Origin: a virus
Lineage: Duplodnaviria > Caudoviricetes
DNA: 64,000 nt
IMG/VR virus record: IMGVR_UViG_2880152234_000004
Span: 64,001 to 128,000 of that record
Direction: 5' to 3' (one strand)
Part shown: positions 1,169 to 56,396 of the stretch, one piece after another
Layout: the number at the start of each line of letters is the position of its first letter
How positions within the stretch are numbered: position 1 is the stretch's first letter
The notes under the pieces: generated by a model
What the model was told of the DNA's origin: nothing
Seen by the model: only the letters and a program-made list of their open reading frames with translations
Databases searched by the model: none
Translations under genes and position numbers: made by a program

Positions 1169-1186
1169 TTAAAATCGTAGTTTTAT
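1169..1186 (+). repeat. Junction motif WTAAAA-N6-TTTTAT
   Basis: TTAAAA-TCGTAG-TTTTAT. Confidence 0.7.
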
Positions 1187-1603
1187 TTAGTCTTGAGAAA
1201 GTTTGTCAAAATCTCTTTCTTTCATTTCAGGTAAAGTTAGATTAATCCCTAACATATTTATTAATTCTTGTACATATCTTTTAATTGCAAGCATATCAAA
1301 TGGAAAATCGAAATCAAATTCCTCTTTAACGCTTAGAATATCCATTGAATACGAACAATTATGCTTCATACCCAAAAGATCATCATTAAAGCTTAGTACA
1401 TCTTTATATGATTGATCAGATAACTCAAAGTGAGTAACTAAATAAACACTAATATGGTTACCACCTTGAGAATCAAAATCCTCTAATCTTTCCTCAAGTA
1501 CTAATAAAAATGCAGATCTCTCATCATCACTTAAGACCAATTGAAAAAATTCTAAGTTTCTTAGTTTCAATAACCGTTTAAATCTTGTGTGTTGTGCCCT
1601 CAT
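1187..1603 (-). CDS. Hypothetical acidic protein, possibly the 3' remnant of a longer gene
   Basis: 138 aa ORF with weak RBS; an alternative upstream frame has protein-like stretches broken by stops. Confidence 0.45.
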   Translation of the reverse strand: MRAQHTRFKRLLKLRNLEFFQLVLSDDERSAFLLVLEERLEDFDSQGGNHISVYLVTHFELSDQSYKDVLSFNDDLLGMKHNCSYSMDILSVKEEFDFDFPFDMLAIKRYVQELINMLGINLTLPEMKERDFDKLSQD

Positions 1604-1648
1604 AATCTAATTCTGCCTTTCCTGGTATAAATCGTTTTAGAAAGAGTA

Positions 1649-2290
1649 TTACATGTATTTATATTCTTCTACCCAGTTGTGATATTTTTCATAAAGTGGA
1701 CGTATTCGTTTGAAATCAAGAGCTATGACTTCACATCCTCGGTCATCATAGATAAAGAAAATAATGTCTTTTGTAATGTTCACAAAGAAAACATCAGGGT
1801 AATCAATTGAGTAACCCCCGAATCTCGGTTTCAATGGAAAATCTTCATTACTGGCTGCTTTAAGTAGTTCAGTTACATGTAAGTCTCGAGGTTTGCATAA
1901 CAAGGAAAATTGTTGCATCTCGTATTCTTCAGCTTCATCTATCTCAAAGGGGTAGGAATATGTCTTTACTTGAATTTGATTTAAATAATTTTTACACTTT
2001 AGAAACGGTTGATACACCTTCAATTTTTTTATAAATTTGTCGTTGGTTTTGTGCTTATACATATTCGTCACAAGGAATATGTCATCGTTTTGTTCAAATA
2101 ATTCATTGAAAATGGTTGAGATTTGCTCATATACAAACCGAAATCTCTTAAGATTCAATTCTTCATTCTCTTTGAGTTGGTAAATATTTTCCCCAAGACA
2201 CAAATGGATTCCTATGCTCCATTGATTATAGATGCTAGGAATTAATTCGAGTCTTGGAAACCTTTCCTCCATATACCCCATTAAATTCAT
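1649..2290 (-). CDS. DUF3885-family protein
   Basis: C-terminal motif FFVN..KDIIFFIYDDRGCEV..LYEKY..W. Confidence 0.75.
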   Translation of the reverse strand: MNLMGYMEERFPRLELIPSIYNQWSIGIHLCLGENIYQLKENEELNLKRFRFVYEQISTIFNELFEQNDDIFLVTNMYKHKTNDKFIKKLKVYQPFLKCKNYLNQIQVKTYSYPFEIDEAEEYEMQQFSLLCKPRDLHVTELLKAASNEDFPLKPRFGGYSIDYPDVFFVNITKDIIFFIYDDRGCEVIALDFKRIRPLYEKYHNWVEEYKYM

Positions 2291-2419
2291 TCACACATTC
2301 TCACTTTCGGTTAATCGAATAGCAATTTTTTGAATCACTCGCTTTTTGCCTTCCTATAACAATTAAAAATTATGGAATAACAGGAGTGTTTCATTTAAAT
2401 GTCAACATACTCTTTTTTG

Positions 2420-2437
2420 ATAAAAGAATGATTTTAT
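2420..2437 (+). repeat. Junction motif WTAAAA-N6-TTTTAT
   Basis: ATAAAA-GAATGA-TTTTAT. Confidence 0.7.
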
Positions 2438-2545
2438 AGTGATTTTATTTTTGTACTCTAATTGCTTCATTCACATAATTGTTTTTTGAAATGATACGTC
2501 TCTGCTCTCCATCTTCCTGTTTTCATTGGTTTGCCTTGATTAGTT

Positions 2546-2770
2546 TTAACCGCCTTTATTTAGATTGGAAAACACTTCTGTAGAAGTCAATTTAATTTCA
2601 TCAGCAAATGTAATCAACTTCTCTAAATCGTCTTTATCAAAGAACTCGGGGTCAGTATTCTTAAGAGTTTCATTTGCATTATTTAGCATTAAAAGTAATT
2701 GTTCAATTTCTTCAAATGGATTCAATTTATTTGGTTCAACTGGTGAAAAATCAGAGTTTGTTGGTTCCAT
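2546..2770 (-). CDS. Small acidic hypothetical protein
   Basis: 74 aa, RBS AAGGAG before ATG. Confidence 0.7.
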   Translation of the reverse strand: MEPTNSDFSPVEPNKLNPFEEIEQLLLMLNNANETLKNTDPEFFDKDDLEKLITFADEIKLTSTEVFSNLNKGG

Positions 2771-2788
2771 ATTTATCTCCTTATCAAG

Positions 2789-2806
2789 TTAAAAGTACGA
2801 TTTTAT
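2789..2806 (+). repeat. Junction motif WTAAAA-N6-TTTTAT
   Basis: TTAAAA-GTACGA-TTTTAT. Confidence 0.7.
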
Positions 2807-2840
2807 GTAGACCTAAAAAACTTGTAATTCTTTCCTAACC

Positions 2841-3089
2841 TTATAACTTTAGTATACCATTTTTTCCCGAGTGATCGATATGGTTATGATCTTTTTGGAA
2901 TAGTAACAATTCATGTAGCTCAATGTTTAGGTATGTACAGACTTTATCTAACAGCTCTCTTGGATACCGTTCCATTTCATCTCTGTATAGCTTCCTGACA
3001 GTCGGATACTCATGATCAATATCTCTGGATAGTTGCCTAATACTAATCCTTCTTTCGTCTAATATGAGCCTTAAATTTGATTTAATCAA
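2841..3089 (-). CDS. yopB: Xre/Cro-type HTH transcriptional regulator (YopB-like)
   Basis: [47 protein letters not shown] pattern; RBS GAGGTG. Confidence 0.7.
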
Positions 3090-3183
3090 TCGTTCTCACC
3101 TCTGATTACTTTTGATCACTTAAAATGATCATTAAACTTATAATATTGGCCAAGGTTATCGTTCTCCTTGACCCTGTGGAACA

Positions 3184-3627
3184 TTAAAAAGGATAGTCGT
3201 CCGGCTCTTCATGGTCAAATCCATAAGTGCCTTTTATTTTCACATCTCCGCATCCTGGATTTTTTGTAATCTCTAGAGAGTGATTTTTATATGGATCTCC
3301 CTCTACTCTGTCTGTTGCAGTAAAATCAAAGTGGTTTCCTGTGAATTCTTTTACACTCCTTGGGAAAACCCATCCACCCAGAGTTATTCTGTTGATTGTC
3401 ATTGTTAGAGTACAACCTTCAGCATCAAAAACCGTAAACTTGTACCACAACCAAGTGGGATAGTAGTTCTCGTTATCATAATCAGCCATCGAAAACCCAG
3501 TAGATTCCTCTGTCATAGTAAAACTCACTTTCTTGTATTCAGTTGTAATCTTAGCAGTAGCACTGTTAACATAAAAACCTGAGATTAAGCCAAAGCAAAT
3601 CAAAGTCAAAACGAATAACCTTTTCAT
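3184..3627 (-). CDS. Secreted hypothetical protein (Sec signal peptide)
   Basis: MKRLFVLTLICFGLISGFYVNSATA signal; RBS GGAGAGGG before ATG 3627. Confidence 0.75.
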   Translation of the reverse strand: MKRLFVLTLICFGLISGFYVNSATAKITTEYKKVSFTMTEESTGFSMADYDNENYYPTWLWYKFTVFDAEGCTLTMTINRITLGGWVFPRSVKEFTGNHFDFTATDRVEGDPYKNHSLEITKNPGCGDVKIKGTYGFDHEEPDDYPF

Positions 3628-3698
3628 TCCCTCTCCTCCCCTCACCTAATTATAGCATAATTTGGTAATTCGGAAAGGTAGTGATAACTGAGATTACT

Positions 3699-4076
3699 TT
3701 ACGCTATTTTTGCCTTGTTTTGCATAAAAACTGAGTCCCAGACCCAAAAGATAAAAGCAAATGAAATGCTAAACAAGTAAATTTCGTATGACAATAGAAT
3801 CCCTAAGGTGTTAATTGGATCAGTGATTAAAGCGAAGAATAACCATACTAAGAAGGAAAAGAATAAGTATATGAATAAATATTTCAGGCTAAACCTTTTT
3901 GGCTTACGATTTAAAAAATATTGAACAGGCGTTGCAAAGATTAAATAAAATATATAGAGAATGGCACTTATTAGAATGTATGGATAGTAACCATTATAAT
4001 CGATGCAAAAAACATAAACAGCAGCAGCAGATAACGCAGACAAGACATGAACAAACATGATCCTAAAAACTTGCAT
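3699..4076 (-). CDS. UPF0715-type membrane protein (paralogue of 742-1137)
   Basis: Shared motifs FATPVQYFLNRKPKRFS and FIFWVWDSVF; RBS AAAGGGG. Confidence 0.7.
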   Translation of the reverse strand: MQVFRIMFVHVLSALSAAAVYVFCIDYNGYYPYILISAILYIFYLIFATPVQYFLNRKPKRFSLKYLFIYLFFSFLVWLFFALITDPINTLGILLSYEIYLFSISFAFIFWVWDSVFMQNKAKIA

Positions 4077-4138
4077 GTTTTTTATAACCCCTTTCATGTT
4101 AAAAGCTTCTTCATCATTGTCTAGACGCCTCCTTAAAA

Positions 4139-4327
4139 TCACTTTAAAATCCATGTTTTATTTGATCTCAGCTTCAATTTGCAAAAATCTCCTAATGGTT
4201 CAACACATATTACTTCGTACATACAGTCGTCATAAGTATTAAGAAGGACAGTTGTATCTTCTTTTATTTGACCTCTCTCTAACATGCTTTGTAATGAATT
4301 TATTAGCTGCTTTACGTTCATAGACAT
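4139..4327 (-). CDS. Small hypothetical protein
   Basis: 62 aa, closely coupled to upstream gene, RBS AGGGGAG. Confidence 0.55.
   Translation of the reverse strand: MSMNVKQLINSLQSMLERGQIKEDTTVLLNTYDDCMYEVICVEPLGDFCKLKLRSNKTWILK
4144..4161 (+). repeat. Junction motif WTAAAA-N6-TTTTAT
   Basis: TTAAAA-TCCATG-TTTTAT. Confidence 0.7.
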
Positions 4328-4330
4328 TAA

Positions 4331-4753
4331 TTAATCTCCCCTTTCTACTGAATTTCTCTGTATATTTCTTAGCCTCTGAGACAATGCCTGTTGATACTTC
4401 TTCCCTTCATTAGTTGCTGAACAATCAATTAGGTTAAGCGTGTGGCCTCCTTTTTCAACAGTAGTCAATAATTGATCACCTACATCACGATTAACCCATT
4501 TTTTATGCCTTCTTTCTCCTAGGTATGAAAAACCAAAATTGTTTTGTGTATGTAAATTGACTATGCAACTGGATGAAAGACTTGCAATTGCAATTTTAGC
4601 AGCAAGGATTATTGATCTATTTTGTGTCCGCTCTAAACAACTAAAATATGTTTCTTTCACAATTCCTTTGTATCTAAATATCACGATAGCTAAACCAGTT
4701 TTTTCAGGCGCAGTTTGTAGCACTCTGATGAAAATATCAATTTCCTTAGACAT
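4331..4753 (-). CDS. RNase HI-like fold protein lacking the catalytic acidic residues
   Basis: GLAIVIFRYKG..RTQNRSIILAAKIAIASL..CIVNLHTQ..VNRDVGDQL aligns by eye to RNase HI GWGAILRY..TTNNRMELMAAIVALEAL..CEVILSTDS..VKNVDLWQRL. Confidence 0.6.
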   Translation of the reverse strand: MSKEIDIFIRVLQTAPEKTGLAIVIFRYKGIVKETYFSCLERTQNRSIILAAKIAIASLSSSCIVNLHTQNNFGFSYLGERRHKKWVNRDVGDQLLTTVEKGGHTLNLIDCSATNEGKKYQQALSQRLRNIQRNSVERGD

Positions 4754-4848
4754 AATATCCACCTTTTCTAGATTTTATATTATATCTAATTATCACATAT
4801 TAAGACCAAAGCTCAATCAATATATTATTGTCGCTTTTGTGTATGGAG

Positions 4849-5170
4849 TCAGCATGTAACCAACTTTTCAACCTTCTTTACAAATTCAACAAACTGATTT
4901 TGGTCTTGAAGAATACCAAGCTTTCATATTCACCGGTAAAAAGCCATTGAGGGTTTCCCCATTTGTCTGTATCTCCATGATAAAACTTGATCCTTTTGTG
5001 TTTATCTCTTCATCTTCCTGAATTTCATAATGATACTCAATCAATTTCTTCAAAGAGTGGCTGTCCTTTATTTCTTTTGTATAAAAAGTTAATCCTTGAT
5101 CCTCATATTGCTTTAGTTTAAAGCCTTTATCCAGTAAAAATTTAAGGTTGTTTTCATTTAACACTGTCAT
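4849..5170 (-). pseudogene. Hypothetical protein with apparent frameshifts near its 3' end
   Basis: ORF 4886-5173 has a good RBS; after ..IQTNGE protein-like sequence continues in shifted frames (PQWLFTGEYE / LGILQDQNQFVEFVKKVEK) at A-runs. Confidence 0.45.
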
Positions 5171-5207
5171 CACTTAGAACCCCTCTCATTAAAGCTGCAG
5201 TAAGTAT

Positions 5208-5504
5208 TTAAATGTTCTCTTCGATTAAATTTTCTTTCAAAAGTTCTAATAGCTTATCAACATATTCTTTTTGATCTTCATTGAAGTAAGTGCTAAACAA
5301 ATCATTCTTTTCAAAGTCATCGAGTTTATCTTTAAGGCTTGAAATCTCATATAGTGTTTCAACTGGCTTCCCTTCAAAAACAAACTCAACACTTTCATCA
5401 CCGTACAAAGTAATCGTTTCAAGCGCTTCTTTGATGTCTCCATTCCAGTTTTTCAAATAAAACAATTCCATTGACACGTCATACGATAGACCAATCGTGT
5501 ACAT
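5208..5504 (-). CDS. Small acidic hypothetical protein
   Basis: RBS AAGGAG before ATG 5504. Confidence 0.7.
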   Translation of the reverse strand: MYTIGLSYDVSMELFYLKNWNGDIKEALETITLYGDESVEFVFEGKPVETLYEISSLKDKLDDFEKNDLFSTYFNEDQKEYVDKLLELLKENLIEENI

Positions 5505-5614
5505 GTTTAACACTCCTTATTCCCTTAGAATTAATGATTATTGTTTCTTAAAAGACTTATTTGGGTTTAAACTGCTGTTTTATTTTGAATTCAAGTACCT
5601 CGTCGATACAAAAT

Positions 5615-5857
5615 TCACATATCACTTACCTTTTCCTTGCTTTTTGTTGATTTTTCTTGTATACGTTTCACGGTTATTTCAATAATATCTCCCGGCTCTG
5701 TATTCATTCCTAGATCAAAATCTACCCCTGTCAAAAAGTCTGCCGCTTCAATCTCACTTCCTTTTTGAACAACAAGATACCAGCTGCCGGATTCTTCATC
5801 ATATTTAACTTTACCTTTTAAATTTAGAATAGTGTTTAATTGCTCATTCTTAGACAT
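5615..5857 (-). CDS. Small hypothetical protein
   Basis: 80 aa, RBS AAGGGG. Confidence 0.7.
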   Translation of the reverse strand: MSKNEQLNTILNLKGKVKYDEESGSWYLVVQKGSEIEAADFLTGVDFDLGMNTEPGDIIEITVKRIQEKSTKSKEKVSDM

Positions 5858-5869
5858 CTCATATACCCC

Positions 5870-5887
5870 TTAAAATTGTTGTTTTAT
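5870..5887 (+). repeat. Junction motif WTAAAA-N6-TTTTAT
   Basis: TTAAAA-TTGTTG-TTTTAT. Confidence 0.7.
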
Positions 5888-5894
5888 TCATAAC

Positions 5895-6137
5895 TTACAG
5901 TCGATTTTTAACATCATTTTTATAATTTGTTGCGTAGAAATATCCATCAGTACATTCAACTTTTACAATTGGTGTAAATTCATCTTTGTTATTTTCGTTT
6001 ACTTCCTTATATTCATAGCCCTCAATAACCTCATTATCTAAAATGTATTCATATGTTCCTACGCAGTTAAATGTTGTTCCAATAATTTTCATTGCTTCAT
6101 AAGTGTTTTTATTTGTTTTAATAAATTCCATTTTCAT
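5895..6137 (-). CDS. Small hypothetical protein
   Basis: RBS GAAGGG; first gene after a sigmaA-like promoter. Confidence 0.65.
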   Translation of the reverse strand: MKMEFIKTNKNTYEAMKIIGTTFNCVGTYEYILDNEVIEGYEYKEVNENNKDEFTPIVKVECTDGYFYATNYKNDVKNRL

Positions 6138-6151
6138 CATTTCCCTTCTGT

Positions 6152-6169
6152 TTAAAATATGCATTTTAT
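6152..6169 (+). repeat. Junction motif WTAAAA-N6-TTTTAT
   Basis: TTAAAA-TATGCA-TTTTAT. Confidence 0.7.
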
Positions 6170-6200
6170 AATGTTTATATTTTTTGTATTTGTTAATTGT

Positions 6201-6229
6201 ATTATAACCTGATTACCCTTAATGATCAA
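6201..6229 (-). promoter_or_regulatory. SigmaA-like promoter for the small-gene array
   Basis: Minus strand TTGATC-17 nt-TATAAT, with nearby AATACA motifs reminiscent of SPbeta early-promoter repeat elements. Confidence 0.6.
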
Positions 6230-6472
6230 CCATTTATTATACATATTTTTTGTTTTTATATTATCTCTATAATAAATCGCTCATGAGGGGGTTTGGGGGT
6301 GGTGTGAGCAAAAATTGTTCAGGTGAGGAACGAACCGTTTTGAACAATTAGCAGCACCCCCATTCTCTTATTTTATTATTTAATTTATTTTTGTCTCTCT
6401 TAAAGACTTAGACGGGAAAACCCTTGGTATTATTGAGCTTTTTTTAGAGTTTAAGAGGTTTATTCTCTTTAG

Positions 6473-7690
6473 CTACCCATTTAACCATTCAATAAGTAGC
6501 TCCCTCATCCTTAATGAGGGTATGTATAATGTTATTTCTTCACCATCTCTTATTGCAGATCTCCAAATCCATTGTACTAATTCGGATAATGCAAATGCAT
6601 CTTGATCAATTGTTATTTGATATTTCTCTTTAAAATAATTATATAGAACAGTGTTAACGTATCTGTTTATTGTATACACCAAGTGTTTTTTGTGCTTAAA
6701 ATCATTGGTAGCTCTTGCATTACATGACACAAACCCTTTTGTATACCCATTCCCCTTTACTTTGTTTTTGTGTTCTGAATAAGTCGTCCACATAGCTTCA
6801 TCACTTGATGATTTAACAATGTTGTTAAAGTAATTGAATACATTGTTCTTTACCTTCTTGATCGTATATGGTGATTTATTTTTATACCAATTAGATGATA
6901 AAGAATAATCCAATTGGCCAACTGTATTCAAGTTACCTTCATATATTTTTATTTTATTTCTTAATTGAGCCTTTAGAATACTCTCAAATTCAGTATTATG
7001 TTTTGTAAACCTATATTGCCCATCTATAAATTCAGAAACGTATCTTTGATACTTGATATTGTTTATATCATAATAATATCTTTGTATTTGAGCATCAAAC
7101 ATGTAAGTGAGTATGTAAACCTCTTTAAACAACTTGAATATATCTGCAGGAAAATTCCAAATCAATATATTGTCTTTAAAGTACATCAGATTATTGTTTA
7201 AAGCCATATCACGAATATCATCATAACGTGTTTCATAGTCCTTTTTTTCTTCGTTCCATTTCACAAATCCGTCTTCAACATATATTAACTTTGATTCAAA
7301 TAGTGTAGTAAGATCATGCTTCTTAACGCGTAACTGTTCAACTACTTCCATAACTTCATCTAATATCAATGTATAGTTACCTGAAAGGATCAGCTCCTTT
7401 GTTTCGTCATTAGCATTTTTGAATAGATTATGTGTGGCAACAATATTTTTGTTCTGAGATAAAAGTTCATGAAATGACTCAAACTTATATTGTGTTTTGT
7501 CACCTTTCTTCTTTACTTTAGGTTCATAAATTTGTTTACTGCTTATGCTCTTCTTAATACGATCCACTTCATCCAAGTATGGTGTAATGAAAATAAAGTT
7601 TTCGTCTGTCCCTGAATTATTCATCATGTCAATTGCTGCAGTTGTTTTACCGGATCCCATAATAGAATCAATCACTTTAACCTTTTCCAT
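6473..7690 (-). CDS. yonV: YonV, SF2 (DEAD/DEAH-like) helicase-domain protein
   Basis: Walker A DSIMGSGKT, Walker B LILDEV, QWIWRSAIR motif VI; synteny. Confidence 0.8.
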   Translation of the reverse strand: MEKVKVIDSIMGSGKTTAAIDMMNNSGTDENFIFITPYLDEVDRIKKSISSKQIYEPKVKKKGDKTQYKFESFHELLSQNKNIVATHNLFKNANDETKELILSGNYTLILDEVMEVVEQLRVKKHDLTTLFESKLIYVEDGFVKWNEEKKDYETRYDDIRDMALNNNLMYFKDNILIWNFPADIFKLFKEVYILTYMFDAQIQRYYYDINNIKYQRYVSEFIDGQYRFTKHNTEFESILKAQLRNKIKIYEGNLNTVGQLDYSLSSNWYKNKSPYTIKKVKNNVFNYFNNIVKSSSDEAMWTTYSEHKNKVKGNGYTKGFVSCNARATNDFKHKKHLVYTINRYVNTVLYNYFKEKYQITIDQDAFALSELVQWIWRSAIRDGEEITLYIPSLRMRELLIEWLNG

Positions 7691-7800
7691 ACAATCCCCT
7701 TATATTTTAAATTTGTATCTAAAAATAAGGAACGATAATTGCTTTACCGCTCCTTAATTTGTAGTTCATATTAAATTATCCTTTTATGTTCGCTGAATGA

Positions 7801-7962
7801 TTAATAAGAATCATCTTGTTTTACTTTGCTTATCTCTTCTCTGTACTCTAATAGCTCTGAATCAATTCTGTCAGTTGTGTCTTTGATGGAGTCAATATCT
7901 TTCTTGAGCATTTCTAATTCCTTAGCAAGCTGCCGAATAGCATCCGGGAATTTTTTCTCCAC
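7801..7962 (-). CDS. yonU: YonU-like small coiled-coil protein (53 aa, possibly C-terminally shortened)
   Basis: Hand-translated GTG start, RBS GAGGTG: MEKKFPDAIRQLAKELEMLKKDIDSIK...; lies between yoyJ and yonV. Confidence 0.65.
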   Translation of the reverse strand: MEKKFPDAIRQLAKELEMLKKDIDSIKDTTDRIDSELLEYREEISKVKQDDSY

Positions 7963-8006
7963 TCATCTCACCTCAATGATTTTATCATACCATGAGGCCT
8001 ATATGA

Positions 8007-8258
8007 TTAGTGTGACTTGTTTCTTAGTTTAAAGAATACAAAATAGATGATCCATAACAGTATGACAATGATGCATGTGACTACAAATATTGTATTAATA
8101 AGTGTTTGTGCTTCGCTGCTGAAGTAATCCTTAATGAGTTGAAACATTAAGAATAAGCCAATGAATGTGATATGAGTAAACCATAATGAAAATCGTTTCA
8201 TGTTTGCAATGTGCTTGATCATGTTATAATATGAGTAGGAACTAAAGGAGAAGTTCAT
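8007..8258 (-). CDS. yoyJ: YoyJ small membrane protein (SR6-regulated)
   Basis: Two hydrophobic segments; directly downstream of yonT; true start may be an internal ATG. Confidence 0.75.
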   Translation of the reverse strand: MNFSFSSYSYYNMIKHIANMKRFSLWFTHITFIGLFLMFQLIKDYFSSEAQTLINTIFVVTCIIVILLWIIYFVFFKLRNKSH

Positions 8259-8340
8259 TCCCCTTTAGCTTGGTACTCATCTGCGTATACGTTTGCGTTG
8301 TCTCTTCCTACGGAGTCGCTTACGTGTACGCTTTTTCTTT
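8236..8340 (+). ncRNA. SR6-like antisense antitoxin RNA (ends approximate)
   Basis: Extended -10 TGTTATAAT (8222-8230); antisense to yoyJ 5' end and yonT 3' end; ends in a hairpin plus U-run near 8340. Confidence 0.65.
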
Positions 8341-8453
8341 TTGCTTGTCCCATTCATTAAGTTTCTTACCTTCTCAACTATTGTGAGGCAGTTGATAGTA
8401 AGAACTGTTAATGAGATAAGGAAAGCAACTAAGATACCCACCTTCTCAAGCAC
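8277..8453 (-). CDS. yonT: YonT type I toxin
   Basis: GTG start after AGGAGGTG; one TM helix followed by a very basic tail KKKKRTRKRLRRKRQRKRIRR. Confidence 0.9.
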   Translation of the reverse strand: MLEKVGILVAFLISLTVLTINCLTIVEKVRNLMNGTSKKKKRTRKRLRRKRQRKRIRR

Positions 8454-9351
8454 TATGTACACCTCCTTTCCTATGACTTTATTATAACACATTTCGTTAT
8501 CTTTATATACATATTTTTTATATTTGTGTTAAGTTATTTATGTGTTAATGGATGGTGTTGAGATACTTTGTTTGCTGTCTGAGTGAACAAGAATGCAATT
8601 GGATTGGGAATTGATTAAGGATGCTTAGAGGTTGTTATATTGATTCTGAGATCGTGTGAGTGTGATGAGTGGTTAGTGTAGGATATATGATTGGGTAAGG
8701 TATGGTTATGTATAGTGATGAGGTTAGGTTAAATATGTCTTCGATTCCCTCGGATCCGTTATAAATACGATTATTTTTAATGAATGGTTATTCATTTTCA
8801 AATTACTAATCATTTTATTTTTTTAAAAATTTATTCTTGTGTTTGCCTTGGAATTATGTTAGCACTGTTGCAGACCTGCCCAAGTCATTAAATGCACGTA
8901 TAATGTACCTTATACACGTATTACAATACCAATATATGGGGGTATATTTACATCTAATGGTAAAATCAAGGGAACAGATGTACCCATAGCACTTCCATTT
9001 CCACACCCTATACAAATTTTCATTTTCTTAATTCCACCTCAAAATCGCCCTATTTCACATCGTAATTGCTTTCGTAAAAGCCTTTTATATCAACGTTTTC
9101 CCCTTTTCAAATTACCTCGTTTTCATCAATATTTAGATAAAGCATCCACTTCCCCCTACTCTCACTTATGTTTTACGATCGTTTTATCCCTAATCACCAT
9201 TCGATGCATCAAATCCCCTTACGTTTACTGGATTTTTGAACTCTATTATATTATTTACGATAGGCATGTTTTTAGATTACGATAATCACTCTATATGGCT
9301 TAGAATTCATCTCAATAACCTGGAGCTGTTAACATACTAGCGAAAAAACAA

Positions 9352-9380
9352 TAGACAAATACAAATAATATGTATATAAT
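9352..9380 (+). promoter_or_regulatory. SigmaA-like promoter of yonP-yonO
   Basis: TAGACA-17 nt-TATAAT. Confidence 0.65.
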
Positions 9381-9406
9381 CATCTCATAGGTGAGGAGGT
9401 GAGATA

Positions 9407-9601: not shown

Positions 9602-9640
9602 ATCAAAAAATATGCATAAAAGAAATAAGGGGAGAATTTA

Positions 9641-14252: not shown

Positions 14253-15470
14253 ATGATCGATCCTATTCAAACTAAGCGTCACTCAGATGAAAACCTTAAA
14301 GAATGGAAAATAAGAATCTGCTCTAATAAAGACATTTATAATCTAAACTGGGAAGAAATCAAAGAGTTAATAAACAAAGAAACCGGCGAATCTAAAGGTG
14401 AATCAGCTTATAGAAAATGGTTCAACAACTTCATTGAGGGGGTTGAATACCAAAGAGAAAAGTCAGATGAATCAAATAATTCTCTCCTTGAATTGGAACT
14501 GAAAAAGGTTGAAATCATGGAAGAGAGAAAAAAGCTTCAAGCTGTAAAGCATGAAATACATAAAAACACACGTGTCAAAGGCCGAACAGAGCTGCTATAT
14601 GAAAATGTAACTGAAGCAATTGAGAAAGTAGGCACTCTCCCTCCCCCTTCCTTCTATCCATTAAATAAGAGCGAAAGAAAAAGAGCTGCTGTTCTAGGGT
14701 TTGGAGACGAACACTTCGGAAAGCAATTTAAAAGCAACAACAATGAATACAACGAACAGATTTATTTGCAGCGTATGAATCAGATCCTTTCTGAAACTGT
14801 TGAGTACATTCAAAAAGAAAATTTAGATGAGTTGGTCGTGTTAAATGGTGCTGATAGTGTTGAAGGTATGGCATTGCGCGTATCGCAATTAACTGCCCTT
14901 CAGTACGGGTTTATTGACCAAGTGATAAAATACTCTAGGTACAAAGCTGAATGGCTTTTAGAACTTTCTAAGCACGTCAAAATTAAGTACATACATATCC
15001 CTTCTGCAAATCATACTGAACTAAGATTACATAATACAAATCGCTCGGAAATGCCTAAAGAAGATGTAGAACGTATTATCGTTACTTATATTCATGACGT
15101 ACTCAAAGACAATGAGCGAATTGAAGTTCCTTTATACGACGAAGGAATTGTGGATTTTAAATTACTTGAATTTGAAATTGTTGCTTGTCACGGACACCAG
15201 ATTAAAAACAAAAAGAATGCTATTCGTGACATTTCACAGATGAAACGAAAATTTTACGATTACATGTACATCTCCCACTTCCACCACGGAAACATGCTCA
15301 CTGTAGGTGAAGCAGCCACTCATAATATCCAAGTTATACAACTCCCTTCTATAATGGGATCCGATGAATACAGTGACAGGTTAATGACAGGTGCCAAAGC
15401 TGGAGCAAACCTATCAATTTATGAGTCCGGTAAAGGTCGTACTATTCAGTATGATTACATATTGAATTAA
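14253..15470 (+). CDS. yonJ: YonJ metallophosphoesterase-fold protein
   Basis: GDEH, GADSVEG, ANH, CHGH and SHFHH metal-binding motifs. Confidence 0.85.
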   Translation: MIDPIQTKRHSDENLKEWKIRICSNKDIYNLNWEEIKELINKETGESKGESAYRKWFNNFIEGVEYQREKSDESNNSLLELELKKVEIMEERKKLQAVKHEIHKNTRVKGRTELLYENVTEAIEKVGTLPPPSFYPLNKSERKRAAVLGFGDEHFGKQFKSNNNEYNEQIYLQRMNQILSETVEYIQKENLDELVVLNGADSVEGMALRVSQLTALQYGFIDQVIKYSRYKAEWLLELSKHVKIKYIHIPSANHTELRLHNTNRSEMPKEDVERIIVTYIHDVLKDNERIEVPLYDEGIVDFKLLEFEIVACHGHQIKNKKNAIRDISQMKRKFYDYMYISHFHHGNMLTVGEAATHNIQVIQLPSIMGSDEYSDRLMTGAKAGANLSIYESGKGRTIQYDYILN

Positions 15471-15491
15471 TTTAATAAGGAGTAAAACTAA

Positions 15492-15587: not shown

Positions 15588-15667
15588 TTCCTACAACTGA
15601 GCCTAATCGAAGTGTTAGGACATTATTTTTTCAACTAAGGGAGCCTCGATGTAGGCTCCAACTTTGT

Positions 15668-15685
15668 TTAAAACTTTAATTTTAT
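15668..15685 (+). repeat. Junction motif WTAAAA-N6-TTTTAT
   Basis: TTAAAA-CTTTAA-TTTTAT. Confidence 0.65.
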
Positions 15686-31689: not shown

Positions 31690-31707
31690 TTAAAATCCCT
31701 CTTTTAT
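31690..31707 (+). repeat. Junction motif directly after the yomM stop codon
   Basis: TAG then TTAAAA-TCCCTC-TTTTAT. Confidence 0.75.
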
Positions 31708-31831: not shown

Positions 31832-32998
31832 ATGTCAAAGAATATTGTAAAGAATCAACATTATGTTTCAGAATTTATACTAAGGAACTTCGCCAATGAA
31901 AAAAAACAAGTAGTGGAATGCCAACTAAAGCACAAGAAAGCATATCCTATCAATATCAACCGCTCGATGAGCTCTAAGTATACTTATGAGCATAATAAAC
32001 TTGAGCAAAATCTCCTTGAAAAATATTTCAGCAAATTGGAAAGCAAAGTGGCACCTACATTAAAAAAAATTGTTAATGAGCTAGAAAAGGAAATGAGTAA
32101 TACAAGATTAGTTTATGAATTGGTTTGCTCTATCTTTATAGAATTATTAGTATTCTATTATAGAAGTGGTGCCCTACTTCATGAGTTCACTTCTCAATAT
32201 GGGCTAGTTAAAAGTGATGAAAAAATAGAACTTTTGATAAAAAAGATAATCAATTTTAAATATTTAAATGATCTTAAAACAATGATAGTGAATAATTACG
32301 AGTGGTCAATAATAAAAAATGATAAAAATGATTTTATTCTAAGTGATCAATACATCAGTACAGCAGCACTTTCAGCTAAAAGTCGTTTTTTAAATATTAC
32401 AAACAGACATATGGGTCTTAAAGATGTAATAATACTAATCCCAATCTCTAGTCGGTTTTATTTTGTCTTTTACAATGGGAAAAAGCCAAATTATATAAAA
32501 AAAGAGCAACTATGCACTCTAAATGAAAGTCAAACATTTGAAATAAACGTGGCTATTCTAAATAACTCTTATCAAAAGTGCATCAGTTGTAATGATGAGG
32601 CATTAACAAGAGTATTGGATAGATTTAACGAGGTGAATCCAGTCGGTTCATTTGCCCATTATAATTCTGGATATAAAGAGTTTAAAGTTAAAAAAGAAGT
32701 GTTTTTTTATGAAGAAGATCTAACATCTTATGAATTTTTTACATCTTTTCGTTTTCGTAAGTATAAGAATCTAAAAAGAAATGAAAGATGTGTCTGTAAA
32801 AGTGGCATGAAATATAAAAATTGTTGTTTGATTTATGTACAAAAAGCTGAACTTATCTTTAATGATTTCCAGCGTAATGTAAACCCTCTTTCCTACAGTG
32901 CTAATCCATACAATATTATCGAACAAAGCATTAACGAAGTATTCTCTATTGAAGAACCCCAATTATTTAAGGATATAAGATTAGCTTCTAAAAAATAA
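31832..32998 (+). CDS. DUF4238 protein with C-terminal SEC-C zinc motif; candidate anti-phage protein
   Basis: NQHYVSEFILRNF, FILSDQ, LIPISSR; RNERCVCKSGMKYKNCC; RBS GAGGA before ATG 31832. Confidence 0.75.
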   Translation: MSKNIVKNQHYVSEFILRNFANEKKQVVECQLKHKKAYPININRSMSSKYTYEHNKLEQNLLEKYFSKLESKVAPTLKKIVNELEKEMSNTRLVYELVCSIFIELLVFYYRSGALLHEFTSQYGLVKSDEKIELLIKKIINFKYLNDLKTMIVNNYEWSIIKNDKNDFILSDQYISTAALSAKSRFLNITNRHMGLKDVIILIPISSRFYFVFYNGKKPNYIKKEQLCTLNESQTFEINVAILNNSYQKCISCNDEALTRVLDRFNEVNPVGSFAHYNSGYKEFKVKKEVFFYEEDLTSYEFFTSFRFRKYKNLKRNERCVCKSGMKYKNCCLIYVQKAELIFNDFQRNVNPLSYSANPYNIIEQSINEVFSIEEPQLFKDIRLASKK

Positions 32999-49451: not shown

Positions 49452-49469
49452 ATAAAATATAGATTTTAT
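49452..49469 (+). repeat. Junction motif WTAAAA-N6-TTTTAT
   Basis: (TTCTAG)ATAAAA-TATAGA-TTTTAT. Confidence 0.7.
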
Positions 49470-49588
49470 TCAAAATACATACTTGAAAAACAGAGATAGT
49501 AAGAGCATACGTGAGATAAAGAGAGATTGGGTTAAGTCCCCTTCTCTCTTTTTTGTGCTCAAATTTAATTATTAGGAGAGATGTTTTT

Positions 49589-50659
49589 ATGACAATTCAA
49601 GCGAGACAAATGTTGGTGCCATCAGGTAAATATTCAATTAAATGTCCTTATGCAATGTCGGCAAAGTATATTACTTTTCACAATACAGCTAATGATGCAT
49701 CGGCAAATAATGAAATTACATACATGAGAAACAATAATGCTGAAGTATCTTATCACTTTGCAGTGGATGATAAAGAGGTTGTTCAAGGTATTCCAGTGAA
49801 TCGAAATGCATGGCATACGGGAGATGGATCAGGTGTCAATTCCGGAAACCGTACGTCTATCGGCGTAGAGGTTTGCTACTCTAAATCTGGTGGAGAACGA
49901 TACAGAAAAGCAGAAGCACTGGCAATCAAATTCATTGCACAACTACTTAAAGAACGTGGCTGGGGAGTTGAGCGAGTTAAGAAACACCAAGAGTGGTCAG
50001 GAAAATATTGTCCTCATCGTGTTTTAGATGAAGGTCGTTGGGATGAAGTTAAAAATAAAATTGCTGCCGAACTAAAAGTTCTCGGTGGCAGATCAACTGC
50101 TCCAACAAAAACATCAATCAGACCAACTACATCCTCCCCTTCCTCTTCATCAGCAGCAAGTGGTTCACTAAAATCAAAAGTTGACGGTCTTCGCTTCTAT
50201 TCAAAACCATCTTGGGAAGATAAAGATGTTGTCGGCACAGTAAATAAAGGCATTGGATTTCCTACAGTTGTTGAGAAAGTTAAAGTCGGATCTGCGTACC
50301 AATACAAAGTTAAGAACTCTAAAGGCGCTACATATTACATCACTGCTTCTGACAAATATGTTGATGTTACAGGATCAGTTAAAACCTCTTCTCCTGCCCC
50401 AAAAACAACATCAACTTCTTCAAGCTCCTCATCTATTAAATCCGTGGGAAAAATCAAAATTGTTGGTGTATCAAGCGCAGCAATCGTAATGGACAAACCT
50501 GATCGAAATAGTTCTAAAAATATTGGCACAGTCAAGCTTGGAAGTACTATTTTAATTTCTGGTTCAGTTAAAGGCAAAAACAATTCCAAAGGTTACTGGG
50601 AAGTTATTTATAACGGTAAACGTGGATACATCTCAGGACAGTTTGGTTCAAAAATCTAA
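49589..50659 (+). CDS. blyA: Endolysin, N-acetylmuramoyl-L-alanine amidase with SH3b-like cell-wall-binding domains
   Basis: HNTAN..HFAVD..AWH..HQEWSGKYCP Amidase_2 motifs; C-terminal half BlyA-like. Confidence 0.8.
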   Translation: MTIQARQMLVPSGKYSIKCPYAMSAKYITFHNTANDASANNEITYMRNNNAEVSYHFAVDDKEVVQGIPVNRNAWHTGDGSGVNSGNRTSIGVEVCYSKSGGERYRKAEALAIKFIAQLLKERGWGVERVKKHQEWSGKYCPHRVLDEGRWDEVKNKIAAELKVLGGRSTAPTKTSIRPTTSSPSSSSAASGSLKSKVDGLRFYSKPSWEDKDVVGTVNKGIGFPTVVEKVKVGSAYQYKVKNSKGATYYITASDKYVDVTGSVKTSSPAPKTTSTSSSSSSIKSVGKIKIVGVSSAAIVMDKPDRNSSKNIGTVKLGSTILISGSVKGKNNSKGYWEVIYNGKRGYISGQFGSKI

Positions 50660-54455: not shown

Positions 54456-54488
54456 ATCGACTCACTCCTTTATTAATCTAATATTAAC

Positions 54489-54532
54489 AGAACAAACGTT
54501 CTTTATTCAAGAGAAACCAGAACAAAGGTTCG
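54489..54532. promoter_or_regulatory. Two LexA (Cheo) boxes upstream of yolD-uvrX
   Basis: AGAAC-AAAC-GTTCT (54489-54502) and AGAAC-AAAG-GTTCG (54519-54532). Confidence 0.8.
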
Positions 54533-54627
54533 GTGTAAATGTTGGAAATAAAATTAAAGGTCAATAATGATATACGTAGTATTAATAAAGGAGGGATTCT
54601 TTTCCACAAAGGAGAGTGTATTGGTGA

Positions 54628-54963
54628 ATGAAGAAGAGGCTAATCGGATTTTTGATCTTAGTTCCTGCTTTGATTATGTCGGGTATTACTTTAATCGAAT
54701 CAAACAAAAAAGCACCTGAAGAAGTTTTAGAAAGTGCTTGGGATGAATTTGGTTTATTTAGTTTTCAAATTGGAATAACAGATCCGGCAATTACAATTGG
54801 CATGGATCAAACCAAAAGTGAGGCAAAGCTCCGTGAATATTTAGAACATAATCTGTCAAGAGAAGCAAAACAAAAATATAAGATTTATGTATTCAAAGAT
54901 GATATTGATAAATTGGAGAAAGAACATCGAGAGTATTTGCAAGCAAATAACCCCAATAAGTAA
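54628..54963 (+). CDS. yolC: YolC exported/membrane-anchored protein
   Basis: N-terminal hydrophobic segment; synteny. Confidence 0.75.
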   Translation: MKKRLIGFLILVPALIMSGITLIESNKKAPEEVLESAWDEFGLFSFQIGITDPAITIGMDQTKSEAKLREYLEHNLSREAKQKYKIYVFKDDIDKLEKEHREYLQANNPNK

Positions 54964-54965
54964 AA

Positions 54966-54992
54966 CGCCCAGCACTTTATTAAGCTGGGCAT
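54966..54992. terminator. Terminator between convergent yolC and yolB
   Basis: GCCCAGC..GCTGGGC hairpin. Confidence 0.6.
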
Positions 54993-55004
54993 TGTTTTCA
55001 TTAT

Positions 55005-55370
55005 TTAAATTGAATTTTTATAAGCATTAATTGCTTCGTTTCGCAGCAGCATATTATTTTTGTTAACCATACCTAAGTTATAAGTTTTTTTGATAATATC
55101 TAATACCTGTGAATCTAATGCAGAGAGATTGCCTCCCGGATTAAATCTTGATTTCCAATAATCTAAAGACTTATTTAGGTCAAATGAGCTTTTTTTGTTC
55201 TCAGGTTTAACTACCTCATTTTTCTCAAGTTTTTCACAGAATTTACTAAAACCAATTGATGAAGGAGTTGGGTTATTCCCTCCGTATCCTTCTGTAGCCA
55301 AACTGCAAAATGCTAAGAACTTTGGATCTTTAGTTACATCATAATTAGAAGTGCTAATCACCTGGTTCAC
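55005..55370 (-). CDS. yolB: YolB hypothetical protein
   Basis: Synteny; overlaps yolA stop. Confidence 0.7.
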
Positions 55371-55834
55371 TCTCTTTCAAAATCAATTTTTCGGCTGTAA
55401 ACAAAAGTAGTGCCTGAGCTTAATGCTTTAATCTGTATAGAGTTATCTTGAAGTGCGTCCATTGGAATCTCAAAATATTTATCCCAGCCTATAACTACCT
55501 TATTCTGACCAAGAATGGCATCGGATTTATACATCCTAGCTGTACCATCATATAACAGATTTTTTCCATCTTTACCCGTGATAACTGTTAACTTTGTATA
55601 CCCCATAAAACGAGCCTTAACGTGAAGTTTATCACCTTTTAAAACACTTGGAGCTTTGGTTTGACTAAAAGTGATGTTATCCCAAGCAAAATCGTTCCCG
55701 TCTGATGTAATCCCTGTAATTTGCAGATAATAAAGTGGTGTTGCTTCTGCTGCTTTGGCTTTTGTTGGATCAGTGTAAGCAAAAGCTACTACTGCTAGAA
55801 AAGCAAGCAGCACATACGTAATTCTTTTCTTCAT
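55367..55834 (-). CDS. yolA: YolA secreted protein
   Basis: Signal peptide [22 protein letters not shown]; synteny. Confidence 0.8.
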
Positions 55835-56064
55835 TTCCTAAATCCTCCTTGGTACAAGTTTACATGTTAAATATCGTCATTTGAAAGGAATTGTTTAATA
55901 TTTGAAATAAAAAAGAACCTGCATTTTGCAAGTTCATTCATATTGTCAATTTATTGTGAGTTTTTAACGACAAGGACATTTATGTATAGTATAATATTTC
56001 CTGTACATTAAGATTGCTCACTCAAGGGAGTCTTGCTCATCCCCTAATGAAAGGGGGTGATGCT

Positions 56065-56148
56065 ATGTCAACATTCCAGGCATTAATGTTAATGCTTGCA
56101 TTCGGGTCGTTTATAATCGCCCTGTTGACGTATATAAATAAAAAATAG
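56065..56148 (+). CDS. Type I toxin, BsrE/BsrH family (27 aa)
   Basis: Hand-translated MSTFQALMLMLAFGSFIIALLTYINKK; RBS AAAGGGGGTG with upstream complementary CATCCCC. Confidence 0.88.
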   Translation: MSTFQALMLMLAFGSFIIALLTYINKK

Positions 56149-56270
56149 ACCTCCCTTGAGCCTCAGAACCTAAAGGGATAGGTCTACCAAGAAACCACAT
56201 CGAGCAAGCCCTTTGATGGGCAACTTTTTGTACAGAGCCGGGGTGTTGGTAGCACCCTGGTCTTTTTATT
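56138..56270 (-). ncRNA. Convergent antisense antitoxin RNA (SR4/SR5/as-BsrH type; ends approximate)
   Basis: Minus-strand terminator TAGACC..CCCTT..AAGGGAGGTCTA-TTTTT over the toxin stop; toxin terminator GCCGGGGTG..CACCCTGGTC-TTTTT at 56237-56268. Confidence 0.7.
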
Positions 56271-56378
56271 TTATGCATTTCTTATTAAACAAATGCATTT
56301 TTTATACTTTAAAAAGTATAATCCTCATCCTAATTATAACCATATAAAAATGGTATTTGCAATACTATTGCTTTATGG

Positions 56379-56396
56379 TTAAAACCATTATTTTAT
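56379..56396 (+). repeat. Junction motif WTAAAA-N6-TTTTAT
   Basis: TTAAAA-CCATTA-TTTTAT. Confidence 0.7.

Follow-up and report, generated by a model that had tools for sequence, protein, structure and literature searches.

The DNA examined here is a 64-kb stretch of a Bacillus genome (positions 64,001 to 128,000 of IMG/VR record IMGVR_UViG_2880152234_000004), referred to below, in its whole length, as the window. It is part of an SPbeta-like prophage, and an exact spaced palindrome, TAAAA-N6-TTTTA, recurs in it at the borders of genes. We call this element the dyad, its two outer parts the arms, and its six variable bases the center. Comparison with related phages revealed that the dyads are strict, selected, phage-borne and marked by their centers, and that they are fixed points around which neighbors are exchanged. 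A paired protein probably reads the dyad on duplex DNA. The reading that we favor, with a probability of about 40%, is that the dyads are addressed, lox-like joints at which YomM or YopP, two recombinase-fold proteins of the phage, would recombine copies with like centers.

The dyad is enriched at one spacing and with exact arms only

The window corresponds to positions 1627681-1691680 of a 4.29-Mb genome with 43.7% G+C. A search of both strands for TAAAA-N6-TTTTAT gave 15 matches, compared to 0.56 +/- 0.86 in 100 dinucleotide shuffles, of which 0/100 reached 15. When the spacing in TAAAA-Nk-TTTTA was varied from k=0 to k=20, we found 13 copies at k=6 and 0 to 3 at all other values. The 11 copies of TAAAA-N6-TTTTAT that a first-pass annotation of this DNA had reported are all exact on the + strand (Table 1, every dyad apart from 22097 and 32377, which are two further core copies beyond its list). 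No two centers in the window are the same, and 12 of the 13 core copies lie at gene ends or between genes according to the list of open reading frames (ORFs) and the gene map of phage SPBc2. On these points the annotation was borne out, and the excess over shuffled sequence and over other spacings agrees with the checks that it had proposed.

Two of its other claims fared less well. The one-mismatch variants that it had added at 708, 5567 and 20045 are indistinguishable from chance: one-mismatch dyads at k=6 number 18 in the window (9 to 25 at other spacings) and 41 in SPBc2 (34 to 60 at other spacings). As one-mismatch copies stay at background, the dyad is all-or-none in its ten arm bases. 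The annotation had also described a polarity that is constant on the + strand whatever the direction of the genes. On that strand, the 13 core copies read TTTTAT in 11 cases and ATAAAA in 4. Seven of the 11 listed copies are surrounded by minus-strand genes and read ATAAAA-N6-TTTTAW in gene sense. This is also the general pattern of SPBc2, where A occupies position -1 in 26 of 34 copies and position +16 is A in 16 and T in 17. Among + strand genes of the window, the + polarity is seen at 15669 and 31691 and the opposite one at 22097, while 27870 and 49453 are symmetric. With two informative sites for it and one opposite, strand-fixed polarity cannot be claimed. A longer arm, TCTRAATAAAA, is strand biased in phi3T, SPR and Goe11 (24 forward versus 5 reverse); from the yokA-first layout common to these records and SPBc2, we infer that the favored strand is the sense strand of the early genes.

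Dyads are phage-borne, and their arms are under selection

Megablast of the window returned 25 Spbetavirus-type records with 86-94% identity. Mapping of SPBc2 onto the window placed yopD/yopB/yonV/yonU/yonT-like early genes on the minus strand to ~9 kb, followed on the plus strand by yonP, yonO (RNA polymerase), yonN and the yonK-yomC late operon to ~50.7 kb, and then by yol/yok genes. The whole bacterial genome contains 68 core copies of the dyad, 39 of them in the prophage (1,551,361-1,696,987). The 29 copies outside the prophage are without longer arms, and N6 is not raised there over other spacings. Core N6 copies number 34 in SPBc2 (0-4 at other spacings), 30 in phi3T, 35 in SPR, 34 in Goe11 and 37 in BUCT082.

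Although the SPBc2 genome is 86% coding, 30 of its 34 copies lie between genes or at the edge of one, and 27 belong to the early region. The wider consensus in this phage spans ~28 bp, T-Y-T-R-A-A-TAAAA-(K-N4-M)-TTTTA-W-N-N-A-R-A, the outer parts of which pair in some copies only. The SPBc2 record annotates two copies alone, as stem_loops 2622-2651 and 116406-116431. The dyad is unmentioned in the main text of the SPbeta literature searched (PMC10516654, PMC8270828, PMC5467207, PMC8612738 and bioRxiv 2021.11.22.469490); Lazarevic et al. 1999 may mention it.

We compared orthologous sites of SPBc2 and the other genomes. Substitutions were found at 7/230 arm positions (3.0%), mostly in the few copies located within genes. 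The six-base centers had 13/138 (9.4%), the next 6 nucleotides beside the dyad 35/276 (12.7%), and the outer flanks 58/644 (9.0%). The arms are under selection, and the centers are free. Together with the exact one-turn spacing and the absence of a fold (see below), this combination fits a paired protein that reads double-stranded DNA.

The placement of the copies relative to genes could be taken for that of a simple intercistronic linker, in which a stop context and an A/T-rich unstructured stretch before the ribosome-binding site (RBS) would aid translation and serve as a passive patch of homology. In SPBc2, 9 upstream genes use the TAA of the left arm as their stop codon, 12 of the 27 early copies end 20-36 nucleotides ahead of the next annotated start, just before the RBS, and a Shine-Dalgarno-like word lies within 30 nucleotides of 21 of the 34 copies. 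We nevertheless consider a linker quite unlikely. A translation spacer requires neither exact inverted symmetry nor exact N6, the motif is not raised in the host chromosome, and sense and antisense are alike. Moreover, convergent and divergent junctions of the SPBc2 early region hold 3 copies each, and those at convergent junctions have no downstream start.

A footprint of exchange at dyads with like centers

Six SPbeta-like genomes gave 15 genome pairs, and these contained 361 pairs of dyads with the same center, compared to a chance expectation of ~0.65 per genome pair. In 150-bp flanks, neither side was related in 146 of the 361, one side in 124 and both in 91; the corresponding numbers for 40-bp flanks were 146, 129 and 78. 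Where a flank was related, the center was the same 207 times and differed at three or more bases 4 times. As a comparative footprint, this places exchange between like centers.

Between SPBc2 and the prophage alone, we found 27 same-center pairs versus 0.65 expected, of which 25 are colinear. Many of these pairs align perfectly as far as the dyad and are unrelated beginning 0-3 nucleotides past it, on one or both sides. The remaining 2 of the 27 fall in an additional SPbeta-like patch that lies past the end of the prophage. This patch, at ~1,551,000-1,558,000 of the host genome, consists of early genes (yokI-, yoqP- and yoqV/W-like pieces) and has two dyads whose centers are those of the copies at 92753 and 95129 in SPBc2. 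It could represent either a rearranged end or another, incomplete element.

The 13 copies of the window were looked up by center in five related genomes (SPBc2, phi3T, SPR, Goe11 and BUCT082). A same-center copy was present in 41 of the 65 combinations, with no related flank in 18, one in 13 and both in 10. Copies 6153, 15669 and 31691 recur in 5/5 genomes, mostly beside foreign neighbors. In syntenic intergenic regions, isolated exact islands of 14-40 bp included a dyad in 30 cases and none in 52. Many of the 52 are pieces of SPBRE, a repeated regulatory element of the phage, which Lazarevic et al. reportedly defined in 1999. The dyads make up 544 of the 19,525 bases of SPBc2 intergenic sequence (2.8%), compared to 30 of the 82 islands. 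Without the restriction to synteny, chance matches (73-100 per pair) and diverged genes dominated the islands. A second repeated junction word, TTTAGAGTAAAAATAAAAT, is also among the isolated conserved islands; it follows some dyads and runs into the RBS (in the prophage outside the window, and in SPBc2 at 113680-113705 and 132763-132790).

The first-pass annotation had proposed that the sites bound cassettes, as in integrons or pdif modules. In such a system, a recombinase with tolerance for unlike centers would cut out single genes as circles and place them at any dyad. One clean insertion has this appearance: the prophage carries a 1.2-kb gene between dyads with the centers CAGAGA and ACGATA, where SPBc2 has the ACGATA copy alone. 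Four cases of a related flank with an unlike center, and the skipping of gene 5895-6164 between two dyads in contigs of related phages, point the same way. We also scored 28 indel or replacement events between the prophage and SPBc2, and a single one had dyads at both ends, while 11 had a dyad at one end. With 1/28 events bounded in this manner, the dyads are not an integron or pdif cassette array. Capture of this kind is highly improbable also in view of the 207 versus 4 related flanks, the colinearity of same-center copies between genomes, the absence of any attI/Pc-type platform among the sequences seen, and a length and fold (~0 kcal/mol) unlike those of attC.

Several results weigh against exchange at the dyads as a general rule. 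The genome pairs behind the same-center counts are not independent, and 16 of the 28 events had a dyad at neither end. We tested junctions for ends of high-scoring segment pairs (HSPs) using 33 query sequences with 183 unique ends. In the early region, HSP ends fell at 14/22 dyad junctions versus 39/98 others (p=0.057), and versus 33/61 junctions with gaps of at least 20 bp (p=0.47); in the first genome pair alone, the numbers were 12/22 and 29/98 (p=0.044). Of 238 identity change points in aligned DNA of six genomes, most were inside genes, and 11 were no more than 60 bp from a dyad, where the null gave 7.3 with a maximum of 16. An identity change point was found at 13/23 dyad junctions, compared to 35/127 others (p=0.013) or 24/69 with gaps of at least 20 bp (p=0.087). 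Dyad junctions are thus ~1.5-3 times as prone to breakpoints as others, which is not significant once gap length is controlled. Gene exchange alone also explains the strong purifying selection on ~35 sites less readily than an everyday task in regulation would.

Two proposals of the annotation hence stand in part. Breakpoints coincide with the motif insofar as homology very often ends at dyad edges, but the excess over other junctions is modest. The likeness to tyrosine-recombinase sites holds for the arm-spacer-arm geometry and the persistence of same-center copies. The idea that the dyads drive most of the mosaicism is not supported; they are one type of joint among others.

The dyad recurs in distant phage lineages

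A pattern scan of IMG/VR returned 118 stretches, 28 of them with at least 3 N6 copies. Half of these (14/28) had zero blastn coverage (0.00) against SPbeta, and they showed the same layout of stop codon, dyad and RBS. Whole-record counts were 13 (G001), 6 (G002) and ~10 (G003, G004 and G005), compared to 0-5 for reversed-pattern controls. Among named phages, N6 copies number 17 in Perkons, 25 in Kirov and 37 in phi116 (0-3 at other spacings in each), 17 in a Staphylococcus SPbeta-like phage and 7 in Lactococcus 949 (1-4 in both), 7 in Enterococcus VFW (1-6), 4 in TR-TP1 (0-5) and 0 in PMBT24. In the last of these, an Enterocloster phage, TAAAA-N5-TTTTA has 10 copies and other spacings have at most 5, which may be a variant spacing or chance.

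In an unbiased ranking of every 5-mer arm with spacers of 0-12, TAAAA-N6-TTTTA came first in SPBc2, Perkons, Kirov, phi116 and the Staphylococcus SPbeta-like phage; the same ranking gave no comparable dyad in the other four phages named above. Copies between ORFs account for 29/34 in SPBc2, 12/17 in Perkons, 21/25 in Kirov, 28/37 in phi116 and 9/17 in the Staphylococcus phage, in genomes with an ORF cover of 87-91%.

The dyad differs from SPBRE and from RNA and promoter signals

The repressor of the SPbeta lysogen, SroF/MrpR, is described in the main text of PMC10516654 and in bioRxiv 2025.11.27.690993 as a protein of recombinase fold that acts as a repressor only; it binds 24 bp as a monomer (bioRxiv 2025.11.27.690993). 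Its ten ChAP-seq peaks are all at SPBRE promoters (PMC10516654, main text). We found a AAAAAATATGTATA-like word common to 9/10 upstream regions of the genes with peaks (yorE, aimR, yonT, yonP, yonX and others). The window has four such cores, two exact and two with one mismatch (Table 1; 0.26 expected). They lie upstream of gene 5895-6164 and of the yonT-, yonP- and yonO-like genes, apart from the dyads, and are presumably the MrpR/YopR operators of this prophage. SPBRE resembles the dyad as a repeated intergenic element of the same phage and as one read by a recombinase-fold protein. It differs in having ~10 copies and a non-palindromic 15-bp word with the core AAAAAATATGTATA, over which a monomer covers 24 bp. 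Since the dyad is another word in other places, its identity with the SPBRE/MrpR operator is ruled out.

The minimum free energy of the core is ~0 kcal/mol. With 6-nucleotide flanks, it was -1.5 to -2.2 kcal/mol versus -0.7 for shuffles; values with flanks spanned -1.5 to -3 in all, compared to -0.7 to -1.7 for shuffles. Folding did not differ between sense and antisense, and G-U was not in excess over A-C at symmetric positions. The near-zero fold energy and strand symmetry rule out a stable RNA hairpin. Promoter-like sites in 1-9400 number 52 versus 47.5 expected, and terminator-like sites number 4 versus 3.1 expected, with 0 at dyads; these counts rule out the dyad as a sigma-A promoter or intrinsic terminator. 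An RNA signal for processing, stability or termination between cistrons, such as a site for RNase III or RNase Y, would suit the placement between a stop codon and the next RBS, and intercistronic processing sites have reportedly been found in Bacillus phages, for example in SP82 early RNA. We regard such a signal as very unlikely given the energies, the strand symmetry and the terminator count above, and given that copies also occur at convergent and divergent junctions.

The RNA polymerase YonO was another candidate. Its mapped start lies upstream of yonK (PMC5467207, main text), and the dyad is absent there. A tie between dyad and polymerase was rejected because PMBT24 and TR-TP1, with 0 copies and with 4 versus 0-5, carry YonO-like genes, while Kirov has its 25 copies without YonO at E<=1e-4. 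In the window, yonO is intact (9641-12169, +, an 842-aa ORF), whereas in Goe11, Goe14, BUCT083, phi3T and others its match is split in two by an insertion, for example of a gene for a GIY-YIG nuclease. The HU-like protein YonN is unlikely as the reader, as a Bac_DNA_binding gene is absent from the 97%-complete record G004; tblastn likewise found no YonN match in Kirov, phi116 or the Staphylococcus SPbeta-like phage.

Recombinase-fold proteins are candidate readers

We compared all SPBc2 proteins with eight genomes by tblastn (E<=1e-4). YomG/H, YonG, NrdE/F, YosR, YomM, YopP and YopR had matches in each of the four distant genomes that are rich in dyads and lacked them in both dyad-free ones, which are two YonO-bearing phages. 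YomM, YopP and YopR are the only DNA-binding types with this profile, and all three are recombinase-fold proteins. They are encoded by three separate genes in each of the four genomes, with identities of 34-61% (YomM), 27-31% (YopP) and 24-31% (YopR). No SPbeta HTH_XRE protein was found across the distant dyad-rich phages at this threshold, at which short proteins are easily missed.

Of the three, YopR/MrpR has SPBRE as its assigned site. SPbeta integrates by means of the serine recombinase SprA (PMC8612738, main text), so that YomM and YopP are left without a known task. The repressor operon includes YopP (same source). The YomM of the window is 97.6% identical to that of SPBc2 and scored 32.8 bits with Pfam Phage_integrase and 26.5 bits with a SAM-like N-terminal domain, the latter just below the 27-bit cut-off. 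A MAFFT alignment, inspected by eye, showed that the YomM and YopP families keep the first R, the K, H-x-x-(R/K), the second H and the Y. We regard YomM as no more than a candidate partner of the dyad. YomM-like genes of the recombinase family are present in 165 phage records. Among them are large phages that we take to be virulent and non-integrating (the Lactococcus 949 group, Bacillus Kirov/PBC2-type phages, and Enterococcus and Staphylococcus phages of 85-95 kb).

Other observations speak against YomM or YopP as recombinases of the dyad. In the same alignment, read by eye and without a reference structure, the second catalytic arginine reads as lysine in the YomM and YopP of the SPbeta clade, which could mean binding without catalysis, as in MrpR. 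Enterococcus VFW has a 26%-identical YomM and no dyad enrichment, and in G004, a record close to complete, dyads are in moderate excess although there is just a weak YopP-like match and no YomM. The invariant arm in distant lineages is just 5-6 bp, which is short for a recombinase arm. The link of YomM/YopP to the dyads is also confounded by descent, as it rests on ~9 lineages that share tail genes (yomG, yomH and yonG) and nrd genes as well. Dyads beside the two recombinase genes of G004 were discarded as evidence, one being in a G+C hairpin terminator and the other inside an ORF.

These points bear on an alternative in which the dyads are a dispersed operator. A dimeric regulator, of MrpR-like recombinase fold or other, would control or block transcription through the long early operons, and exchange would be a by-product: the 16-28 bp of identity would be the sole sequence common to unrelated neighbors and would hence permit rare short-homology recombination, for example by the Sak4-type annealing protein YorG. 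The stoperators of mycobacteriophages and the scattered C1 operators of P1 could serve as models. Stretches of 16-24 bp lie at or under the minimum of identity that homologous exchange normally needs, and yet both flanks have been lost in 146 of the 361 same-center pairs. The conserved arms with free centers are what an operator would show, as are the leader copies between promoter/SPBRE and RBS at window position 6153 and at SPBc2 yosX, and the copies upstream of the aimR and yorE promoter regions. Copies at convergent gene ends, where there is no transcript needing control, are not. On the protein side, MrpR/SroF is a precedent in the same phage for a recombinase fold that acts as a repressor only (PMC10516654; bioRxiv 2025.11.27.690993), YopP is within the repressor operon (PMC8612738), and the lysine noted above is a further point in favor. 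The known repressor itself does not use the dyads, its ten peaks being at SPBRE promoters in the main text of PMC10516654, and the HTH_XRE proteins of SPbeta did not turn up in the distant phages, with the limit given above for short proteins. The modest breakpoint excess, and the presence of SPBRE, a regulatory element, among the isolated conserved islands, again favor an operator. We consider a dispersed operator possible, if somewhat less likely than lox-like joints.

Individual dyads of the window

Table 1 lists the features of the window together with the result of the same-center look-up. Logan contigs of related phages (public runs X1, X2, X3 and X5; shares <=0.13) were used only as added comparisons.

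TABLE 1. Positions and surroundings of the dyads, SPBRE-like cores and yomM homologue of the window
Feature	Position	Strand	Surroundings	Same-center copies in the five related genomes
Dyad TAAAA-TCGTAG-TTTTA(T)	1170..1186		Abuts stop of minus-strand gene 1187-1603; other side yopD-like 745-1137	0/5
Dyad ATAAAA-GAATGA-TTTTAT, fully symmetric	2421..2437		Between minus-strand genes 1649-2290 and 2546-2770	SPR and BUCT082, both flanks unrelated
Dyad TAAAA-GTACGA-TTTTA(T)	2790..2806		9 nt upstream (gene sense) of RBS of 2546-2770; downstream of yopB-like 2841-3089	phi3T, SPR and Goe11, 0-1 flank related
Dyad TAAAA-TCCATG-TTTTA(T)	4145..4161		11 nt upstream (gene sense) of RBS of minus-strand gene ending at 3699	SPR (no related flank) and BUCT082 (one related flank)
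Dyad TAAAA-TTGTTG-TTTTA(T)	5871..5887		Between minus-strand genes 5615-5857 and 5895-6164	Goe11 and BUCT082, both flanks unrelated
Dyad TAAAA-TATGCA-TTTTA(T)	6153..6169		Just upstream (gene sense) of RBS of gene 5895-6164; downstream of sigma-A-like promoter (6229-6201) and SPBRE-like core (6238-6251)	5/5; flanks unrelated in 4, one related in Goe11
Dyad TAAAA-CTTTAA-TTTTA(T)	15669..15685		Between yonJ (14253-15470) and yonG (15796-16716), after G+C hairpin	5/5, 0-1 flank related
Core dyad (A)TAAAA-GGAGTA-TTTTA(A)	22097..22112		Between yonC and yonB; yonB RBS within spacer	Both flanks homologous in SPBc2, phi3T and Goe11
Dyad ATAAAA-GACAGT-TTTTAT, fully symmetric	27870..27886		Between yomT and yomS, upstream of yomS RBS	5/5, kept with both flanks
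Dyad TAAAA-TCCCTC-TTTTA(T)	31691..31707		2 nt past stop of yomM homologue; overlaps ATG of DUF4238 gene (31706-32998)	5/5, 0-1 flank related
Core match TAAAA-GTCGTT-TTTTA	32377..32392		Inside DUF4238 ORF 31706-32998; without extended arms	0/5
Dyad ATAAAA-TATAGA-TTTTAT, fully symmetric	49453..49469		Between gene ending at 49392 and endolysin (yomC-like) gene 49553-50659	5/5, right flank alone related
Dyad TAAAA-CCATTA-TTTTA(T)	56380..56396		Between yokL-like gene (56431-56745, minus) and small ORF 56111-56278	4/5; both flanks related in SPBc2 and Goe11, one in SPR and BUCT082
SPBRE-like core AAAAAATATGTATA	6238-6251	-		
SPBRE-like core AAAAAATATGTATA	8506-8519	-		
SPBRE-like core AAAAAATATGTATA	9363-9376	+		
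SPBRE-like core AAAAAATATGTATA	9605-9618	+		
yomM homologue	30688-31689	+	333-aa tyrosine-recombinase-family protein, inside tail operon	

In the early region, contigs of related phages break at 1163/1168 beside dyad 1170. At dyad 2790, the best megablast place of 6 of the 25 phage records starts at 2782-2790, and contig joints are at 2790/2799. Loose contig ends begin precisely at 5871 in runs X1 and X2, another is at 6169 beside dyad 6153, and contig joints from 5892/5895 to 6142 leave out gene 5895-6164 between the two dyads.

The dyad at 15669 is the only element, apart from the G+C hairpin, between yonJ and yonG (15470-15796), as the yonH and yonI of SPBc2 are missing there; the SPBc2 counterpart with the same center stands between yonH and yonI. 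Dyad 22097 corresponds to the minus-strand hit 22096-22112. The dyad at 31691 is 400 bp from yomM in SPBc2. Directly behind it and yomM in the window follows a 430-aa gene (31706-32998, +) with DUF4238 and a SEC-C motif and without an SPBc2 counterpart at this place; it is an accessory gene inserted in the tail operon and possibly a defense gene. The core match inside it, at 32377, is probably a chance copy. At 49453, homology ends 1-13 nucleotides left of the dyad.

Comparison with known systems

Tyrosine-recombinase core-type sites, such as those of Cre/loxP of P1 with the lox variants and of XerCD/dif, have inverted arms around a 6-8 bp center. The dyad has inverted arms around an asymmetric 6-bp center, with N6 alone enriched, the top rank among spaced dyads in five lineages, and a longer arm, TYTRAA-TAAAA, in the SPbeta clade. 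Exchange between identical centers only, the other mark of lox, FRT and dif sites, appears here as a comparative footprint (207 versus 4 related flanks; 25 of 27 pairs colinear). Dyad genomes also carry recombinase-family genes without a known task, and the SPbeta group packages DNA by the headful mechanism from a pac site, for which a parallel with P1 is drawn in the text of bioRxiv 2021.11.22.469490. Unlike lox, the dyad occurs naturally in ~30-40 copies per genome, with private centers and at gene borders. Its arm is invariant over just 5-6 bp, with 11 bp that are partly conserved in the SPbeta clade, whose YomM and YopP, the putative enzymes, read lysine at the second catalytic arginine.

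In the pdif/dif modules of Acinetobacter plasmids, accessory genes are bordered by numerous Xer-type sites with an 11-6-11 layout. The dyads resemble them as many-copy arm-6-arm sites at gene borders, but a dif module has a site at each end, and this was the case in 1/28 events. We know of no likeness between the arms of the dyad and those of XerC/XerD sites. Moreover, the host chromosome has no excess of dyads, which argues against a host reader (XerC/XerD; CodV/RipX in Bacillus).

The attC sites of integrons are imperfect palindromes of 57-141 bp that fold as single strands. As with attC, a promoterless gene ends right before the dyad or with a stop codon that extends into it, and the spacer is variable. 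The dyad differs in its 16-28 bp, in the lack of a stable single-strand fold (~0 to -2 kcal/mol, near shuffles), and in exchanging like centers at syntenic places rather than being captured at one attI. No integron platform was seen, and the copies are spread over the whole phage genome.

PeSLs (promoter-early stem-loops) of T4-type phages are composite promoter-terminator units thought to act via homologous recombination (PMC2839356 and PMC4122927, in part). They are, like the dyads, short conserved intergenic motifs among small variable genes where insertions, deletions and replacements end. Events end at dyads as well, with a modest excess over other junctions. The dyad is not a promoter and terminator unit: it is strict, has a copy-specific center, and shows neither promoter enrichment (52 versus 47.5) nor a stable stem-loop.

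In Cluster A mycobacteriophages, stoperators are asymmetric words that follow the direction of transcription and to which a monomeric immunity repressor binds (PMC9283540 and PMC6550527, in part). In both cases, a temperate phage has dozens of intergenic copies of one short word (here 30/34 in SPBc2 and 12/13 in the window); protein binding to the dyad is putative. Unlike a stoperator, the dyad is symmetric and is not an oriented word, and the SPbeta repressor binds another word at its ten ChAP-seq peaks (PMC10516654, main text).

A model for exchange at dyads

If the dyads are lox-like joints, a dimeric phage protein would dock at them on double-stranded DNA at gene borders. Each dyad would be labeled by its own six-base center, and related phages would swap the DNA on either side at copies with the same center, a step of strand exchange that goes beyond mere binding. 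The copy and its center would stay put while the adjoining genes change. The likeliest agent would be one of the orphans, YomM from the tail operon or YopP from the yopM-R operon, and it would work like Cre on lox variants with unlike centers. Identical arms would let one protein read all copies, and unlike centers would bar deletions and inversions between copies of one genome. Where centers are equal, two genomes, or two copies of one genome, could exchange DNA precisely and without damage to genes.

A bolder version, which we judge unlikely, gives these distributed sites with private centers, served by YomM/YopP, a daily role in the recA-independent joining of equal copies. A genome that is packaged by the headful and circularly permuted would be circularized after injection whichever stretch is terminally redundant, and crossing-over between sister or co-infecting genomes would be precise. 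That yomM is in an operon of virion genes would suit a protein that travels with the DNA. As a side effect, the dyads would form a scaffold on which the supergroup of large Firmicute phages comprising SPbeta, Perkons, Kirov, phi116 and the Staphylococcus SPbeta-like phage could trade intact genes.

SPbeta is a model temperate phage, and the dyad is its most over-represented spaced palindrome. The question that it raises can be put directly to the test in Bacillus subtilis 168, for which strains are available. Should the dyads turn out to be a dispersed operator, they would point to a global regulator of the 70-kb early region. If they are sites for YomM or YopP, they would constitute a natural recombination system of many sites and many centers, and a set of mutually exclusive recombination sites that could be used as a tool. 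Such a system would explain how large phages keep their gene order while accessory genes are swapped exactly at gene borders.

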